A stretch of 64,000 bases of DNA from Pseudonocardiaceae bacterium (GCA_036268955.1 DATATE010000089.1:1-64000); one strand, 5' to 3'. Shown: positions 45,936-52,958, counted from the first letter of the stretch. Made by a program: numbers and translations. The notes: generated from the sequence alone by a model not told the origin.

Positions 45936-45940
45936 GGCTA

Positions 45941-46060
45941 CAGACCTTATCCGTCCTTGCCGTCCGGGCTTGTCCCGTCCTTGCCGTCGGTCCTCGTCCC
46001 GTCCTCGTCCCGTCCTTGTCCCGTCCTTGTCCCGTCCTTGTCCGTCGGCCGCGCGAGGTC
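45941..46060. repeat. Intergenic tandem repeat of an 11-12-bp unit (gtcccgtcctt/g)
   Basis: About 9 copies of (c)gtcc(c/t)gtcctt(g) between the LOG-NUDIX start and the AT-rich tract. Confidence 0.7.
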
Positions 46061-46129
46061 GATCCGCACGGATGGCCCGGAGGTCGCAGGCGGGTACCTC
46101 ACGCCGATTTCACGTTACCCGCACGGTCC

Positions 46130-46300
46130 GGAGAAACGTTTATTTAACAGTCATATTTTGTTTAAAAAATGTCAACTGTGAATATTCAACAATAGACATG
46201 ATCTGTTAACTGCGCATTTACGTATATTCACGACGCATTCGTTGATGATGTCGATTTTACTGGGTATAAAAAATTTACCCTGTCATCGACGGAAAGCGAC
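46130..46300. promoter_or_regulatory. Strongly AT-rich tract (atypical for this about 70% GC DNA) with inverted repeats, upstream of the phospholipase D gene
   Basis: tttatttaacagtcatattttgtttaaaaaatgtcaactgtgaatattcaacaatagacatgatctgttaactgcgcatttacgtatattcacg. Contains ttaacag/ctgttaa inverted repeats, a tataaaaaa stretch, and gtcaactg. Confidence 0.4.
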
Positions 46301-46307
46301 CACTCGA

Positions 46308-49437: not shown

Positions 49438-49903
49438 CCGCGATCGCCCTGACCTCAGTGGATCGCGCTGCTCATCGGCCGGCTCGGCCTGCCCAACTCG
49501 CGCAATGCCAGGTCGACGAGAACGCAATGCCAGGTCGACGGGAACGGCGACGACCGCCTCGCTGACCTACCGGCACGCGGTACTCGGTCTGCGGCACGCG
49601 AAGTGAACGGACGACACGCCGAAGAGGTTGCCGCAACCCCCTCCGCGCGTCGTCCCTTCGCGTAAGGGGGACCCCCGAAATTTAATTCTACCGGTTGTTG
49701 ATCTAGGTTTTGCGGCTTTGCCAGGGAGCCGATTCGCGTGTCGTCCGTACGCGCAGCCGGGCCGACCTCATACGCAGCCGCGTCGTCCCTGTGCGCAGCC
49801 AGGCCGCCCGGTCCCCCGAACCAGCTCGCCCCGGATCGGCGCGCCTGGACCAAGTGCCCGGATCAGGGGCCAGGATCAGCGCGCCCAGCTCAGTGGGCCA
49901 CGC

Positions 49904-50719
49904 TCAGTGGGCCTTGGTCCACGCCGCATAGGAGTCCTCGACGACCCGCACCGCGTCGTCGATGTCGTCGGTGAGGTGCAGCAGGTCGAGATCCTTCTCC
50001 GACAGCTTCCCGCCGGCGAGGACCTGCTCGCGCAGCCAGCCGTACAACCCGCCCCAGTAGGACTTGCCGAACAGCACGACCGGGAACTTGGTGACCTTCT
50101 TCGTCTGCACCAGCGTCAGCGACTCGAACAGCTCGTCGAGGGTGCCGAAGCCGCCGGGCAGGCAGATGAACGCCTGCGCGTACTTCATGAACATCGTCTT
50201 GCGCACGAAGAAGTACCGGAAGTTCACCCCGAGATCGACCCACGGGTTCAGGCCCTGCTCGAACGGCAGCTCGATGCCGAGCCCGACGGACAACCCGCCG
50301 GCCTCCGAACAGCCCCGGTTGACCGCCTCCATCGCGCCAGGTCCGCCACCGGTGATCACCGCATATCCCGCAGTGGCGAGCGCGGCACCGAGTTCGCGGC
50401 CGAGTTCGTACTCGGGGTGGTCGCGCTTGGTCCGCGCGGACCCGAACACGGTGACCGCCTTCGGTACCTCGGCCAGCGCGCCGAAGCCCTCGACGAACTC
50501 GGCCTGAATCCGCAGCACCCGCCACGGATCGGTGTGCACCCAGTCGGTCGGCCCGCGCGAGTCGAGCAGCCGCTGATCGGTCGTGGTGGCCTCGGTCATC
50601 CGCGATCCGCGCAACGTCACCGGACCGCGCTGGCGCTCCGGTGGGCGCTCCTGCCGCCGATCCTGCTGCTCTCGATCCTGCTGCCCGTTGCTGTTGCCCG
50701 AGGGTTGTGGTGCCGTCAC
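49904..50719 (-). CDS. LOG/TIGR00730-family Rossmann-fold nucleotide-binding protein
   Basis: VTVFGSAR ... GYAVITGGGPGAMEAVNRG ... ICLPGGFGTLDELFE are LOG family motifs. The long N-terminal Gln/Arg extension is probably not all coding. Confidence 0.7.
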   Translation of the reverse strand: MTAPQPSGNSNGQQDREQQDRRQERPPERQRGPVTLRGSRMTEATTTDQRLLDSRGPTDWVHTDPWRVLRIQAEFVEGFGALAEVPKAVTVFGSARTKRDHPEYELGRELGAALATAGYAVITGGGPGAMEAVNRGCSEAGGLSVGLGIELPFEQGLNPWVDLGVNFRYFFVRKTMFMKYAQAFICLPGGFGTLDELFESLTLVQTKKVTKFPVVLFGKSYWGGLYGWLREQVLAGGKLSEKDLDLLHLTDDIDDAVRVVEDSYAAWTKAH

Positions 50720-50770
50720 GGCGCGAGTCTAGGCGCGCGCCGTGACGGCAACCCGCACGGCCTGGACAGC

Positions 50771-52816
50771 TCAGCCGGTGACACTGTCCGCGCCATATTC
50801 CAGGTGCCCGACGAAGCGACGCAGGAAGGTCGCCTCCCCGTCCACCGTCGCCGACACGTCGTACCAACCCTGGCCGGTGGCAACGACATCGAGGTCCTCG
50901 GTCAACGTCGCACCGGCCGCAACGCGCACCGTACCGGCCGCGCCGAGCTGGCCCTGGCCACGCAACCGGACCGTGGCGGGTGCCGAACCGCCGTTGCTGA
51001 TCGACAGCCGCAGGCGCGGATGGCTGGTACTGCCCACCACCGTCGCGGCGACCTCGACGCCGAGCCCGGCGCCGGTGCCGTTGAACACCCGCAGGAACCG
51101 GTTGGGGCCGTGCACCGCGATCTGGTAGCCGCCGCTGATCGGCAGGGCCACCGCCTCGCTGCCGCCCGCCGGCACGTGCTGCCGTACCGGTGCCGAACCG
51201 GTCGGGTACACCTGCAACTGCACGGCGGCAGCACCGGAGTTGGCCATCAGCACTGTCAGCGTGCCGGCGCTGACCTGCGCGTTGGCCACCGGCTGGTACG
51301 GGATCGGCCGGGCGGGCCGGTCACCCGGCTCCTGCTGTGGGTCGCGCTGCGCGCCCTCGGCGGGTGGGGTCGGCGTCGGCAGCTTCGACTGCGTGCTGTC
51401 CGCCTCCCGCTGCAACGCGGCGGTGTCCGGCAGCAGCGGAATGCCGGGGTTCCACGCGGAGAAGTCGAAGCAGCTGGTCAGGTCGCCGCAGATGGACCGG
51501 CGCCAGGCCGAGATGTTCGGCTCCCGCACCCCGGTCCACTGTTCGAGGAAGCGGATCACCGAGGTGTGGTCGAAGACCTGCGAGTTCACCCAACCACCCC
51601 GGCTCCACGGCGAGATCACCGTCATCGGCACCCGAGGCCCGAGGCCGATCGGCAGGCCGTCGACGTACTCGTCCTCGGTGCCGGCCGGCGCGGTGGGCGG
51701 CACGACGTGGTCGAAGAAGCCGTCGTTCTCATCGAAGTTGGCGAACACGACCGTGTTGTCCCACAGCTTCTCGTTGCCCCACAAGGCTTTCAGTACGGTG
51801 TTCACGTACACCGCGCCGTCGACCGGCCGCGCCGCCGGGTGCTCGCACCAGCGGTAGGGCGCCACGATCCAGGACACCTTCGGCAGGTTCCCGGCCTTGC
51901 AGGCGCCGATGAAGTCGGCGAGCACATGCTCGGGGTCCATGCCGAGGCCGGAGTCGGGCAGCCATTCCTTGATCACGTTGGCCCGCGCGGCCAGCTGCTG
52001 CTGCGCAGGGTCCGAGCTGGCCAGCGCGTCGTGGTAGGCCTTGAACAGCCACAGCGGGTTGTCGCCGTAGTCACCGACCCAACCGTCGGTGCCGTCGCCG
52101 ACCTCCTTGTTGGCGAAGATCTGCCAGGAGATCCCGGCATCCTGCAGCCGCTCGGGGTAGGTCGGCCAGGACAGCACGGGCAGGTAGTCCGCGGGGTTGT
52201 AGTTGATCGGGCCGCCGAAGCGGCCGGCCGCGTCGATCGTGCCGGTCCAGTGGTAGAGCCGGTTGGGCGTCGTCGGTCCCTGGATCGAACAGAAGTAGTG
52301 GTCGCAGATGGTGAACGCGCTCGACAGCGCCCGCTGGAACGGGATGTCGGCATCGGTGAAGTAGCCCATGGTCAGCTCGGACTTGTTCGGAATCCAGGCG
52401 TCGTAGGCGCCGTCGTCCCAGGCGTTGTGCGTCGGCTGCCAGCTGTGGTCGAGGTCACCGAGATCCTGACCGTCCACTTTGGTGGTGTCGACGTGGAAGG
52501 GCAGCAGGTAGCCGCCGTCGGTCCGCGTGGCGTCCGGCTGGTGGAAGACGCTTCTGCCGGTCGGCAGGTTGATCGCGGTCGTGTCACCGAAGCCGCGAAC
52601 CCCGCGCATCGAGCCGAAGTAGTGGTCGAAGGAGCGGTTCTCCTGCATCAGGATGACCACGTGCTCGACGTCATCCAGCTTGCCCCGCTTGCGCGGCTGG
52701 GTGAGGGCCTCGGCCATCCCGCTCGGCAACCCACTGAGCACACTGCCCGCCGCGGCCGCACCGGCGACACCACCGATGAACCGACGACGATTGAAACCCG
52801 AACCCGACTCGACCAT
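50771..52816 (-). CDS. Tat-exported phosphoesterase-family phospholipase C (non-haemolytic PLC/acid phosphatase family) with C-terminal DUF756-like repeats
   Basis: Twin-arginine signal MVESGSGFNRRRFIGGVAGAAAAGSVLSG. The phosphoesterase core VVILMQENRSFDHYFG. About 680 aa, with two C-terminal beta domains. Confidence 0.8.
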   Translation of the reverse strand: MVESGSGFNRRRFIGGVAGAAAAGSVLSGLPSGMAEALTQPRKRGKLDDVEHVVILMQENRSFDHYFGSMRGVRGFGDTTAINLPTGRSVFHQPDATRTDGGYLLPFHVDTTKVDGQDLGDLDHSWQPTHNAWDDGAYDAWIPNKSELTMGYFTDADIPFQRALSSAFTICDHYFCSIQGPTTPNRLYHWTGTIDAAGRFGGPINYNPADYLPVLSWPTYPERLQDAGISWQIFANKEVGDGTDGWVGDYGDNPLWLFKAYHDALASSDPAQQQLAARANVIKEWLPDSGLGMDPEHVLADFIGACKAGNLPKVSWIVAPYRWCEHPAARPVDGAVYVNTVLKALWGNEKLWDNTVVFANFDENDGFFDHVVPPTAPAGTEDEYVDGLPIGLGPRVPMTVISPWSRGGWVNSQVFDHTSVIRFLEQWTGVREPNISAWRRSICGDLTSCFDFSAWNPGIPLLPDTAALQREADSTQSKLPTPTPPAEGAQRDPQQEPGDRPARPIPYQPVANAQVSAGTLTVLMANSGAAAVQLQVYPTGSAPVRQHVPAGGSEAVALPISGGYQIAVHGPNRFLRVFNGTGAGLGVEVAATVVGSTSHPRLRLSISNGGSAPATVRLRGQGQLGAAGTVRVAAGATLTEDLDVVATGQGWYDVSATVDGEATFLRRFVGHLEYGADSVTG

Positions 52817-52958
52817 GTTGACTGGCCCCTTCCGCTGGACAACGCCGAGTGGAGCCAAACAGCAGAAGGCGAATGCCGCCACGCTTGACTGTTAACGTGA
52901 GGTAGCCATTACCAAGCGCGGATATGGCGTGAAGTTTCCCTGGTCTCCCCGCCCGCCC

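Follow-up and report, generated by a model that had tools for sequence, protein, structure and literature searches.

Between dapE and a LOG gene (LOG1), the 64,000-nt stretch of Pseudonocardiaceae bacterium DNA analyzed here (GCA_036268955.1 DATATE010000089.1:1-64000; hereafter the window, which is part of a 76.8-kb JGI metagenome contig, Ga0376688_0000211 of 3300036818) carries genes for a phospholipase D (PLD)-like protein and a phospholipase C (PLC), together with a second LOG gene (LOG2) and a broken two-component system (TCS). Did these genes arrive together as a single foreign islet, as a first-pass annotation of the same DNA had proposed, or in separate steps? Our results point to separate steps, and we consider it likely that three layers of different age rest on a conserved actinomycete backbone: two old enzyme genes, their regulation, and a recent, decayed cassette. 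The response-regulator (RR) pseudogene of this cassette also displays a strand-specific loss of synonymous cytosines, and this part of the locus could matter more than the islet. Coordinates of the features are collected in Table 1.

The window was compared with 80 genome loci and with two metagenome contigs or metagenome-assembled genome (MAG) contigs, L168 and L169, that were fetched via the PLD protein (L numbers denote fetched loci). LOG2 protein is 70-89% identical across the 80 genomes, nearly all of them Pseudonocardiaceae, and the conserved order of the backbone is dapD, dapE, LOG2, LOG1, acyltransferase, gpgS. The backbone had been called mycobacteria-like, but the dapD/dapE/LOG2/LOG1 order is found family-wide in Pseudonocardiaceae and the source is not a mycobacterium. 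About 73 of the 80 genome loci have dapE, LOG2 and LOG1 next to one another, without PLC or PLD; the two enzyme genes occur only in L008, L026, L032 and L033, all of which are MAGs. Both are also carried by L168 and L169, where PLD is 87% and 84% identical to that of the window and the gene order is LOG1/NUDIX, PLD, LOG2, PLC, without a TCS (L168 ends inside PLC). The clade in which PLC and PLD flank LOG2 thus counts seven members, with PLD identities of 54-87%. Throughout the clade relatives PLD is convergent with LOG2, and the spacer between them is 47-76 bp (53-59 bp in L168 and L169).

Between the window and its clade relatives PLC is 70-73% identical, as compared to 73-78% for dapE and 76-78% for dapD. 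The G+C content at third codon positions (GC3) is 0.93 in PLD and 0.91 in PLC versus 0.83-0.92 in the neighbours, and codon usage is native. Because divergence tracks that of dapE and dapD, and third-position G+C exceeds 0.9 like in the neighbours, these comparisons show PLC and PLD to be old clade-specific insertions, apparently inherited vertically and not freshly imported. Presumably, an ancestor of this small uncultured Pseudonocardiaceae clade gained PLC between dapE and LOG2 and the PLD-like gene between LOG2 and LOG1, and both were then inherited vertically together with their neighbours. The locus does rearrange, since PLC is fragmented in one member and LOG1-NUDIX is wholly or partly lost in several: L033 (MAG SMAG_U1484, 9376-9800) retains PLC only as fragments (residues 59-140 and 235-294) between dapE and LOG2, which indicates that PLC is dispensable, L032 and L033 are without LOG1-NUDIX, and L168 keeps the NUDIX part alone.

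The earlier proposal of a horizontally acquired module is therefore correct in that PLC and PLD were added to the family backbone in a seven-member clade, but native codon usage shows that the addition was not recent. Profiles of GC content and codon usage, which had been suggested as a check, gave a divided answer, as the AT-rich break is present but the GC3 of PLD and PLC is like that of their neighbours; the compositional break is limited to non-coding or pseudogene DNA. In the suggested comparison with relatives, PLC and PLD were present in all seven clade members but nowhere else in the family, and the TCS was in the window alone. The whole 7 kb is thus not one compositionally foreign islet, as the coding regions are native and only the TCS cassette is recent. 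The annotation had also placed the module between a single LOG gene and dapE. This holds for PLC, which lies between LOG2 and dapE, but PLD and the TCS lie between LOG1 and LOG2; LOG2 is present as described, but there are two LOG genes, and LOG1 is fused to a NUDIX domain.

That the TCS is decayed was borne out, as the reading frames of both the RR and the histidine kinase (HK) are broken at 47.4-49.4 kb. The frame of the RR pseudogene is shifted by a perfect tandem duplication of 19 bp (47797-47834), the orthologous ATG was lost in a 12-bp deletion, and a second candidate ATG has changed to ACG; the reconstructed protein is 83-86% identical to intact orthologues. The HK lacks its first ~135-195 codons and the rest is distributed over three frames, as detected by tblastn with intact orthologous kinases, with frameshifts near 48640 and 48775 that were read from the sequence. 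Further downstream, a 480-bp non-coding, repeat-rich region had been described. Repeats do occur at 49.4-49.9 kb, but at least 49419-49560 is the remnant of a PMT_2 glycosyltransferase gene, which matched four orthologous genes (nt ~980-1090) with 73-76% DNA identity and E-values down to 1e-15 in blastn. By tblastn this remnant covers residues 326-409 at low identity, with ~325 codons deleted, and it contains a 22-bp tandem duplication (49501-49546).

Intact genes in the order RR-HK-PMT_2 were found in L082, L083, L084 and L087, in four unrelated contexts, and intact cassettes are present in Amycolatopsis and in many metagenomes. With these cassettes of a TCS and a GT-C glycosyltransferase the window copy agrees in gene order, in the above RR identity and in an operator-like motif upstream, but it differs from them in being a pseudogene array in a new context that is compositionally transformed. 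On the left side, homology to the cassette begins by 47337 at the latest, ~20 nt past the PLD stop codon, and the upstream DNA including a hairpin aligns upstream of the orthologous RR genes in L085, L086, L083, L087 and L084. The hairpin has perfect 16-nt arms (47352-47367 and 47369-47384) and a predicted RNA dG of -33.3 kcal/mol (z = -5.7 versus shuffles). It had been assigned to the DNA following PLD and is present there, but it belongs to the upstream region of the TCS cassette. A role as native terminator of PLD/LOG2 was rejected, because the hairpin aligns upstream of the orthologous TCS and the PLD-LOG2 spacer of relatives has a different hairpin. Next to it lies a CA-rich motif, CATCCACACGAAACTCACACAC (47388-47409), which is conserved upstream of the RR in the window and in L083-L087, with all cytosines kept in the window, and which is probably the RR's own operator. 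On the right side, homology to L168 and L169 resumes exactly at 49904, the LOG2 stop codon. No trace of the cassette was found in the clade relatives of the window, so that it is present in the window alone, and at the junctions of the TCS there was no sign of a target-site duplication.

These comparisons show the TCS cassette to be a separate, later and unrelated insertion, apparently confined to the lineage of the window. Probably, a 2.6-kb RR-HK-PMT_2 cassette of envelope type, with its own hairpin and operator, landed in the convergent PLD-LOG2 spacer of 50-60 bp as passenger DNA inserted by illegitimate recombination, and then decayed by internal deletions, loss of start codons, tandem duplications of 19 and 22 bp and frameshifts.

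Upstream of PLD, an AT-rich tract of ~150 bp with ttaacag/ctgttaa repeats had been reported, and both were found. The GC content drops to 0.46-0.47 (300-nt windows, 46050-46350), the lowest in the 64 kb, as compared to about 0.68-0.72 in the surroundings, and the inverted repeat consists of TTAACAG (46144-46150) and CTGTTAA (46203-46209). This DNA contains the conserved blocks GTCAACTGTGAATATTCAAC (46171-46190), CTGTTAACT (46203-46211) and ATTCAC-N5-ATTCGTTGAT (46226-46246), the last with a phase of 11 nt and with its second unit overlapping the -35 element of a putative PLD promoter (-35 TTGATG at 46242-46247, 17 nt, -10 TATAAA at 46265-46270). Further conserved blocks are GGTATAA and a block with GGAA in the 5' untranslated region (UTR). 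All seven syntenic loci share ~140 bp of conserved DNA upstream of PLD, although the PLD proteins have diverged to the extent given above, and the region is absent upstream of a non-syntenic PLD copy in L170. The blocks serve PLD, because they are kept in L032 and L033, where the divergent LOG1 is absent; a role as LOG1 promoter was rejected for this reason, although promoter-like matches exist on the minus strand. By this pattern of conservation the AT-rich tract is a predicted PLD regulatory region and not an acquisition scar, and the ~140-bp promoter, with its well-defined footprint, offers a handle on the regulator.

The whole 64 kb hold just two copies of the octamer CTGTTAAC, one in each of the promoters of PLD and PLC, with 0.27 copies expected. 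PhoP of Streptomyces recognizes direct repeat units of 11 nt with the consensus G(G/T)TCAYYYR(G/C)G, of which G1 and T2 are reported to be essential, and the Pho regulon includes secreted phosphoesterases, with phoD listed in a table as 'phospholipase' (PMC2275107). At the aligned position upstream of PLC, two tandem 11-nt units are found in L008 (GGTCACCTGCC-GTTCACGACCT) and in L026 (GGTCATCCGGT-GTTCACGGCCA), where the first unit matches the consensus in 10/11 positions and the second in 7/11 (the first six positions and position 10). A strict pattern for double PHO units gave 6 matches in 4.1 Mb scanned, and 2 of these are the PLC promoters of L008 and L026. The Pho-box search suggested in the first-pass annotation thus gave canonical units upstream of PLC in these two relatives, but the units upstream of PLC and PLD in the window itself are degenerate (GTTAAC in place of GTTCAC, A at position 1). 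Three details weigh against phosphate control in the window: the PLC-promoter units of the window and of L169 are the degenerate GGCTACCTCAC-GTTAACAGTCA; the PLD units, ATTCACGACGC-ATTCGTTGATG, begin with A instead of G1; and the spacing from GTTAAC to ATTCAC is 21 nt, not 22. The promoters resemble PhoR-PhoP operators of Streptomyces in the 11-nt phased units, the TTCA core and the overlap with the putative -35 element of PLD, and in the double units upstream of PLC in L008 and L026. They differ from them in that the window units deviate at positions reported to be critical.

The PLC protein matched the TIGR03396 equivalog with 705.3 bits (cut-off 580.25) over model positions 2-683 of 688. 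It contains a Phosphoesterase domain (PF04185, 1.4e-108, residues 72-452 of the 703-aa open reading frame, ORF) and PLipase_C_C (PF05506, 1.6e-29, two matched stretches after the Phosphoesterase domain), and it aligned with the PDB PLC 9gy2 at 7e-152. Its N-terminus, MVESGSGFNRRRFIGGVAGAAAAGSVLSG..AEA, holds the twin-arginine motif NRRRFIGG (RRRF), as read from the translation. With a score above the curated equivalog cut-off, PLC is by prediction a member of the phosphocholine-specific phospholipase C family, and the earlier description of a ~680-aa phosphoesterase-family PLC dependent on twin-arginine translocation (Tat) was accurate. In domain architecture, leader and score the protein agrees with the Tat-secreted phosphocholine PLCs of TIGR03396, such as PlcH/PlcN of P. 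aeruginosa and PlcA-D of M. tuberculosis; the differences are that the position between dapE and LOG2 is clade-specific and that the window's own promoter has degenerate PHO units alone. PlcH and PlcN depend on Tat and are under phosphate control, in keeping with the PHO boxes of the relatives.

The PLD-like protein has a Sec-type signal peptide (MKKHHLLVVPAVLSMIVAGAAVTTADA) and two intact HKD motifs, HQKTITVD...GNL and HAKAIVAD...GSENF. H126/K128/N143 and H274/K276/G292/S293/N295 are invariant across 45 homologues, so the catalytic His and Lys, whose alignment had been proposed as a check, are in place. The AlphaFold2 model (pLDDT 89.3, pTM 0.85) has a bilobed PLD fold. It is certain that the protein belongs to the HKD superfamily. 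The first-pass annotation had it as a secreted HKD phospholipase D; signal peptide and motifs agree with this, but the name 'phospholipase D' is overstated, since superfamily membership alone is established. Among NCBIfam models the best matches (NucT, DrmC and Cls) were all under their cut-offs and no curated lipid-PLD model was matched; cardiolipin synthase models gave 25-40 bits with cut-offs of 281-787. The protein shares with 7e0m, the PLD of Serratia plymuthica, and with the nucleases Nuc and NucT two HxKxxxxD...GSxN motifs, a bilobed fold, secretion and Nuc-sized halves. It is, however, merely 20% identical to 7e0m, it carries two fused HKD halves where Nuc/NucT have a single-HKD subunit, and its 335 aa fall well short of the roughly 500 aa of Streptomyces-type PLDs. 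No characterised member of this secreted two-HKD family was present among the 120 homologues listed, and thousands of proteins could be annotated from one enzyme assay on this widespread family.

We infer from the protein families, the export signals and the promoter motifs that PLC and PLD are most likely co-regulated exported phosphoesterases for phosphate acquisition. Each would have its own promoter, with GTTAAC/TTCAC-type elements common to both that resemble the 11-nt direct repeats of PhoP (and in relatives amount to such repeats), and phosphate limitation would co-induce the release of phosphate from external phosphodiesters or phospholipids; phosphate control of the pair is plausible. 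What may be wrong in this picture is the term 'lipid head-group hydrolase', as the best sequence matches of the PLD-like protein are the nucleases NucT and Nuc together with DrmC. There is a real chance, though one that falls short of probable, that it is instead a secreted nuclease or general phosphodiesterase made of two fused Nuc-like halves, acting on extracellular DNA/RNA and not on phospholipids, and that the pair would scavenge phosphate from two polymer pools. The N-terminal half is closest to the NucT equivalog (63.6 bits), for the C-terminal half DrmC and the endonuclease Nuc (1byr, 1.5e-06) were matched, Foldseek returned the PLD3/PLD4 5'-exonucleases at E about 1e-18, and nucleases exist within the PLD family (PMC10783504), but these scores are far under the family cut-offs (211 in the case of NucT) and the top structural match is the bacterial phospholipase D 7e0m (E 1.9e-21, TM 0.76; PMC8004604). 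Structure comparison by Foldseek, in which C-terminal domains of PPK1 and F13 were also matched, did not discriminate between lipid and nucleic acid as substrate. Unlikely, in our view, is a role of PLC and PLD as offensive or competitive factors against membranes of fungi, amoebae or other bacteria, under a regulator other than phosphate. Exported PLCs of the TIGR03396 family are virulence factors in Pseudomonas and Mycobacterium, and the conserved blocks of the PLD promoter, among them the near-palindrome TGTGAATATTCAACA, outnumber those of a simple PHO box; the PHO boxes upstream of PLC in L008 and L026 speak against such a role, and there are no toxin-immunity or secretion-system genes nearby. 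As to origin, a recent islet, with horizontal transfer bringing in PLD, TCS, LOG and PLC jointly or at a late date and with AT- and repeat-rich DNA marking the junctions, would account for the absence of the enzymes from most family loci, for the AT-rich tract and short repeats at the edges, for PLD-family proteins that are 57-69% identical in Streptomyces, Kutzneria and even Paraburkholderia, for the 83%-identical PLD copy in a different context in L170, and for other secreted hydrolases (GH18, M4 protease) at the dapE|LOG2 junction of L021. It conflicts with the single gene order across seven genomes with PLD identity as low as 54%, with native codon usage and a PLC divergence that tracks dapE, with LOG2 being a backbone gene and not cargo, with the AT-rich tract being conserved promoter DNA, and with the lack of an integrase or transposase (among the window genes scanned), of a tRNA (ARAGORN, whole window) and of a target-site duplication flanking the TCS. 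For PLC and PLD the recent-islet explanation is thus, as far as sequence can tell, largely refuted, and we regard it as very improbable. The L170 copy and the homologues in Streptomyces, Kutzneria and Paraburkholderia do indicate that the PLD family moves between genomes over longer time scales. Across Pseudonocardiaceae, the dapE|LOG2|LOG1 junctions appear as recurrent landing sites for secreted-hydrolase genes, with PLC/PLD in the window and GH18 plus M4 protease in Amycolatopsis sp. WGS_07 as examples. The islet is ordinary biology, in that soil actinomycetes gain exported phosphoesterases, and the ones gained here are old and fixed.

In composition, no other part of the window stands out as strongly as the RR pseudogene (C-depleted over 47420-48300). 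Its GC skew reaches +0.53 (SD 0.074 elsewhere) and its third positions hold C at 0.10, G at 0.61 and T at 0.27, as compared to a third-position C (C3) near 0.48 and a skew near 0 in intact RR orthologues; the 50 best metagenome relatives have a maximum skew of +0.13. When substitutions were polarised against the consensus of five orthologues, 119 of 242 consensus cytosines had changed (49%; 84 C>T, 34 C>G) versus only 4 of 248 guanines (2%; Fisher p = 3e-39). Thymines had changed at 2 of 100 sites and adenines, mostly to G, at 11 of 89. In the control orthologues the changes were symmetric, with 4-11% of C and 3-14% of G.

The loss depended on codon class, as synonymous C sites were changed at 71-84% and non-synonymous ones at 11-12%, with 0/192 for G sites. 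At two-fold codons and Leu first positions nearly all changes were to T (49/51), and four-fold codons went to G or T. Leu first-position cytosines, which are synonymous, had changed at 71% versus 11% for other first-position cytosines. The data show that C loss, as reconstructed here, occurred while the protein was under purifying selection. No dinucleotide context of the C changes was found. Only about 7 differences at non-C synonymous sites separate the pseudogene from the L085/L086 allele, and since these sites are near-identical the C loss is recent relative to the divergence of the alleles. Along the gene the loss is flat at 0.45-0.57; where the RR meets the HK it falls to 0.09, and the HK (48560-49400) has the opposite and weaker bias, with G loss of 18% versus C loss of 6% (p = 2.6e-5). 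Several simple origins were rejected: descent from a GT-rich lineage, because GC skews do not exceed +0.13 in the six orthologues fetched or in the 50 best metagenome relatives, and non-C sites nearly match L085/L086; a context-specific deaminase, because the neighbouring base had no effect; and access with a 3-nt period (e.g. in a RecA filament) as a substitute for selection, because first positions of Leu codons follow the pattern of third positions. An antisense ORF of 341 aa runs across the RR on the minus strand (47401-48426); it is most simply seen as a by-product of the A- and C-poor plus strand, on which minus-strand stop codons are rare.

We scanned 2.0 Mb of fetched loci for further C-depleted patches. 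In L149 (Ga0209890_10000467, 1-3800) an MprAB/PepD-like RR-HK-HtrA operon with three open ORFs is C-depleted; in its RR 79% of synonymous C, 12% of non-synonymous C and 0/31 synonymous G were changed, and C loss declines from 0.55 at the 5' end of the operon and reaches 0.06 some 2.7 kb further on, whereas no G loss is derived. The idea that derived skews of opposite sign alternate across L149 in a sawtooth was discarded, as the negative 3' skew is not derived and C loss alone is. The other case is dapE of the cultured Amycolatopsis sp. WGS_07 (L021 4918-6200; NZ_CP136053.1, complete genome), in which 71% of synonymous C were changed, mostly to T, versus 8-10% in three control genomes; here the skew peaks near the 3' end and is positive until ~200 nt past the stop codon. 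Since this is an isolate genome, an artefact of metagenome assembly is argued against. The same locus has genes for a GH18 protein and an M4 protease inserted at its dapE|LOG2 junction. Apparently milder versions are present in two loci of the same TCS family: in L099 (3800-6300) the GC skew is +0.37 for the 5' end of the RR and -0.31 for the 3' end of the HK, and in L136 (2300-3100) the RR is normal and the 3' end of the HK has a skew of -0.51. Patches rich in G and T were also present in L060 and L068, but these are 16S-23S spacers of rRNA operons and a different phenomenon.

Our literature searches found no bacterial description of strand-specific synonymous C loss, but eukaryotic analogues only. 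Our reading, which is a candidate explanation more than a firm one, is that the RR pseudogene records a gene- or operon-scale process, not yet described in bacteria as far as these searches went, in which coding-strand cytosines would be lost to T or G at ~25x the background substitution rate (a rough estimate) under purifying selection. Tentatively, the cause could be a non-template strand that is chronically single-stranded close to a strong promoter and suffers transcription- or R-loop-associated cytosine damage. Downstream of the promoter the exposed strand would undergo cytosine deamination, bypass of abasic sites would give C->G, and the loss could self-reinforce, as R-loops form more readily where the non-template strand is rich in G. 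The model agrees with the strand specificity, with a beginning close to the 5' UTR, with the gradient in L149, with the A->G changes and with the spread into untranslated DNA. Three observations are left unexplained by a transcription-linked cause and weigh against it: the adjacent PLD, with its near-consensus promoter, keeps a C3 of 0.62; C loss in the window ends abruptly at the RR/HK junction, with the opposite bias in the HK; and dapE of L021 has no 5'-to-3' decay. Kataegis and transcription-associated asymmetry are alike in strand-coordinated C->T/C->G changes, G+T excess on the coding strand, extension into UTRs and the 5' gradient seen in L149, but the present effect is much larger (GC skew +0.53; C 49% vs G 2%) and affects single genes or operons in single lineages, filtered by purifying selection. 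Opposite GC skews at the ends of fungal genes are the closest pattern in print, with a polarity opposite to the present one (PMC3315797).

Two other causes were weighed, and both appear doubtful. The C loss could be a repair scar, in which single-stranded DNA (ssDNA) at a double-strand break, exposed by resection or by cassette copying through synthesis-dependent strand annealing, received one or a few bursts of cytosine damage. In line with this, the polarity flips from C loss in the RR to G loss in the HK exactly at the N-terminal deletion of the kinase, the region is rich in small tandem duplications typical of error-prone end joining, and C->T together with C->G is a known signature of ssDNA-deaminase clusters (PMC6786661). 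A burst would, however, be blind to codon position, which is at odds with the excess at Leu first positions and with the few non-synonymous changes, there is no dinucleotide context, and L149 has open ORFs and no polarity switch. The difference between synonymous and non-synonymous sites led us to reject a single burst, and only many small, recurrent, selection-filtered events are left as a possibility for such a scar. Equally doubtful is an adaptive origin, by selection for C-poor 5' parts of stress-operon transcripts that are weakly structured or CTP-sparing. It would explain why C is replaced by the next-best codon and not randomly (NCC->NCG, NGC->NGT, two-fold codons to T), and why L149 has a gradient from its 5' end, and a C-avoidance/CTP hypothesis exists for fungal genes (PMC3315797), but among the RR genes surveyed only 2, those of the window and L149, are affected, the skew in L021 continues ~200 nt beyond the dapE stop codon, A->G changes accompany the C loss in the window, and the T-ending replacement codons are rare in these genomes. 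If real and general, the process would be either a runaway regime of R-loop- or transcription-associated deamination or adaptive C-avoidance of certain transcripts in high-GC actinomycetes. With chronic single-strand exposure, C loss would mark persistent R-loops or conflicts in bacterial genomes and could be read from sequence; with adaptation, it would be a new axis of codon choice.

Table 1. Features of the dapE-LOG1 locus and its flanks, numbered from the first nucleotide of the window.
Feature	Position	Strand	Remarks
gpgS-like GT2 gene	42905-43870	-	
Acyltransferase	44175-44846	+	
LOG1-NUDIX fusion, left backbone flank	44907-45935	-	Pfam Lysine_decarbox 7.6e-43, NUDIX 2.8e-13
Tandem array, 11-bp unit CTTGTCCCGTC, also 22-bp period	45951-46043	.	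Tandem Repeats Finder (TRF), repeat search; 16 bp from LOG1 start codon
AT-rich PLD promoter/operator region (predicted)	46100-46307	+	Lowest GC and conserved blocks
Secreted two-HKD (PLD-superfamily) phosphodiesterase, 335 aa	46308-47315	+	PLDc_2 6.1e-36
Upstream region of inserted TCS cassette: hairpin and CA-rich motif	47337-47445	+	
OmpR-family RR pseudogene, C-depleted coding strand	47433-48282	+	Response_reg, Trans_reg_C on two frames
HK pseudogene	48283-49419	+	HAMP, HisKA, HATPase_c fragments
PMT_2 glycosyltransferase remnant, from about residue 326	49419-49690	+	Extent uncertain past ~49560
Degenerate 14-bp tandem array of LOG2 3'-end copies, over LOG2 stop codon	49863-49913	.	TRF; right cassette junction
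LOG2 (TIGR00730 family), backbone gene between both insertions	49904-50719	-	Pfam, NCBIfam
Tat-exported phosphocholine-specific phospholipase C family protein, 681 aa (predicted)	50771-52816	-	
PLC promoter region (predicted)	52817-52958	-	Second CTGTTAAC at 52889-52896
dapE, right backbone flank	52959-54074	-	Peptidase_M20, M20_dimer; synteny
dapD	54811-55806	+	

The tandem repeat array of 11 bp noted earlier upstream of PLD is where it had been placed; TRF called it at 45969-46043 with 6.6 copies, 84% matches and a score of 104. It is absent from the LOG1-PLD spacers of L008, L026, L168 and L169. This spacer measures 372 bp in the window versus 192 bp in L169, and the window alone has ~180 bp of additional DNA beside the start of LOG1. 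A function of the array as a PHO-type operator was rejected, as its unit GTCCTTGTCCC is unlike the consensus and the array is window-specific. The 11-mer GATCCGCACGG over the LOG1 start codon (45931-45941) recurs past the array at 46061-46071, ~130 bp away, which suggests that a local duplication may have seeded the window-specific extra DNA. Across 44-56 kb no structured RNA was detected with Rfam (E <= 1).

Elsewhere in the compared loci, the PLD copy of L170 (1035-9110) lies downstream of an imuA'-like/imuB/dnaE2-type cassette (DNA_pol3_alpha gene, MT3502_N, IMS). In two uncultured Actinomycetota MAGs complete 16S-23S-5S rRNA operons are located between dapD and dapE (L060 3420-8829, L068 3478-8793), a further insertion in this neighbourhood. 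LOG1 of the window matched TIGR00730 with 191.6 bits (cut-off 96). In the window, L008, L026 and L169 LOG1 has a C-terminal NUDIX domain fused to it (342 aa), where the fusion is matched over its full length (residues 1-341) in L008 and L026 and called as a fused gene of 324 aa in L169, and in most other Pseudonocardiaceae loci the LOG1 match spans the first ~153-196 of 342 residues, that is the LOG domain without the NUDIX part.

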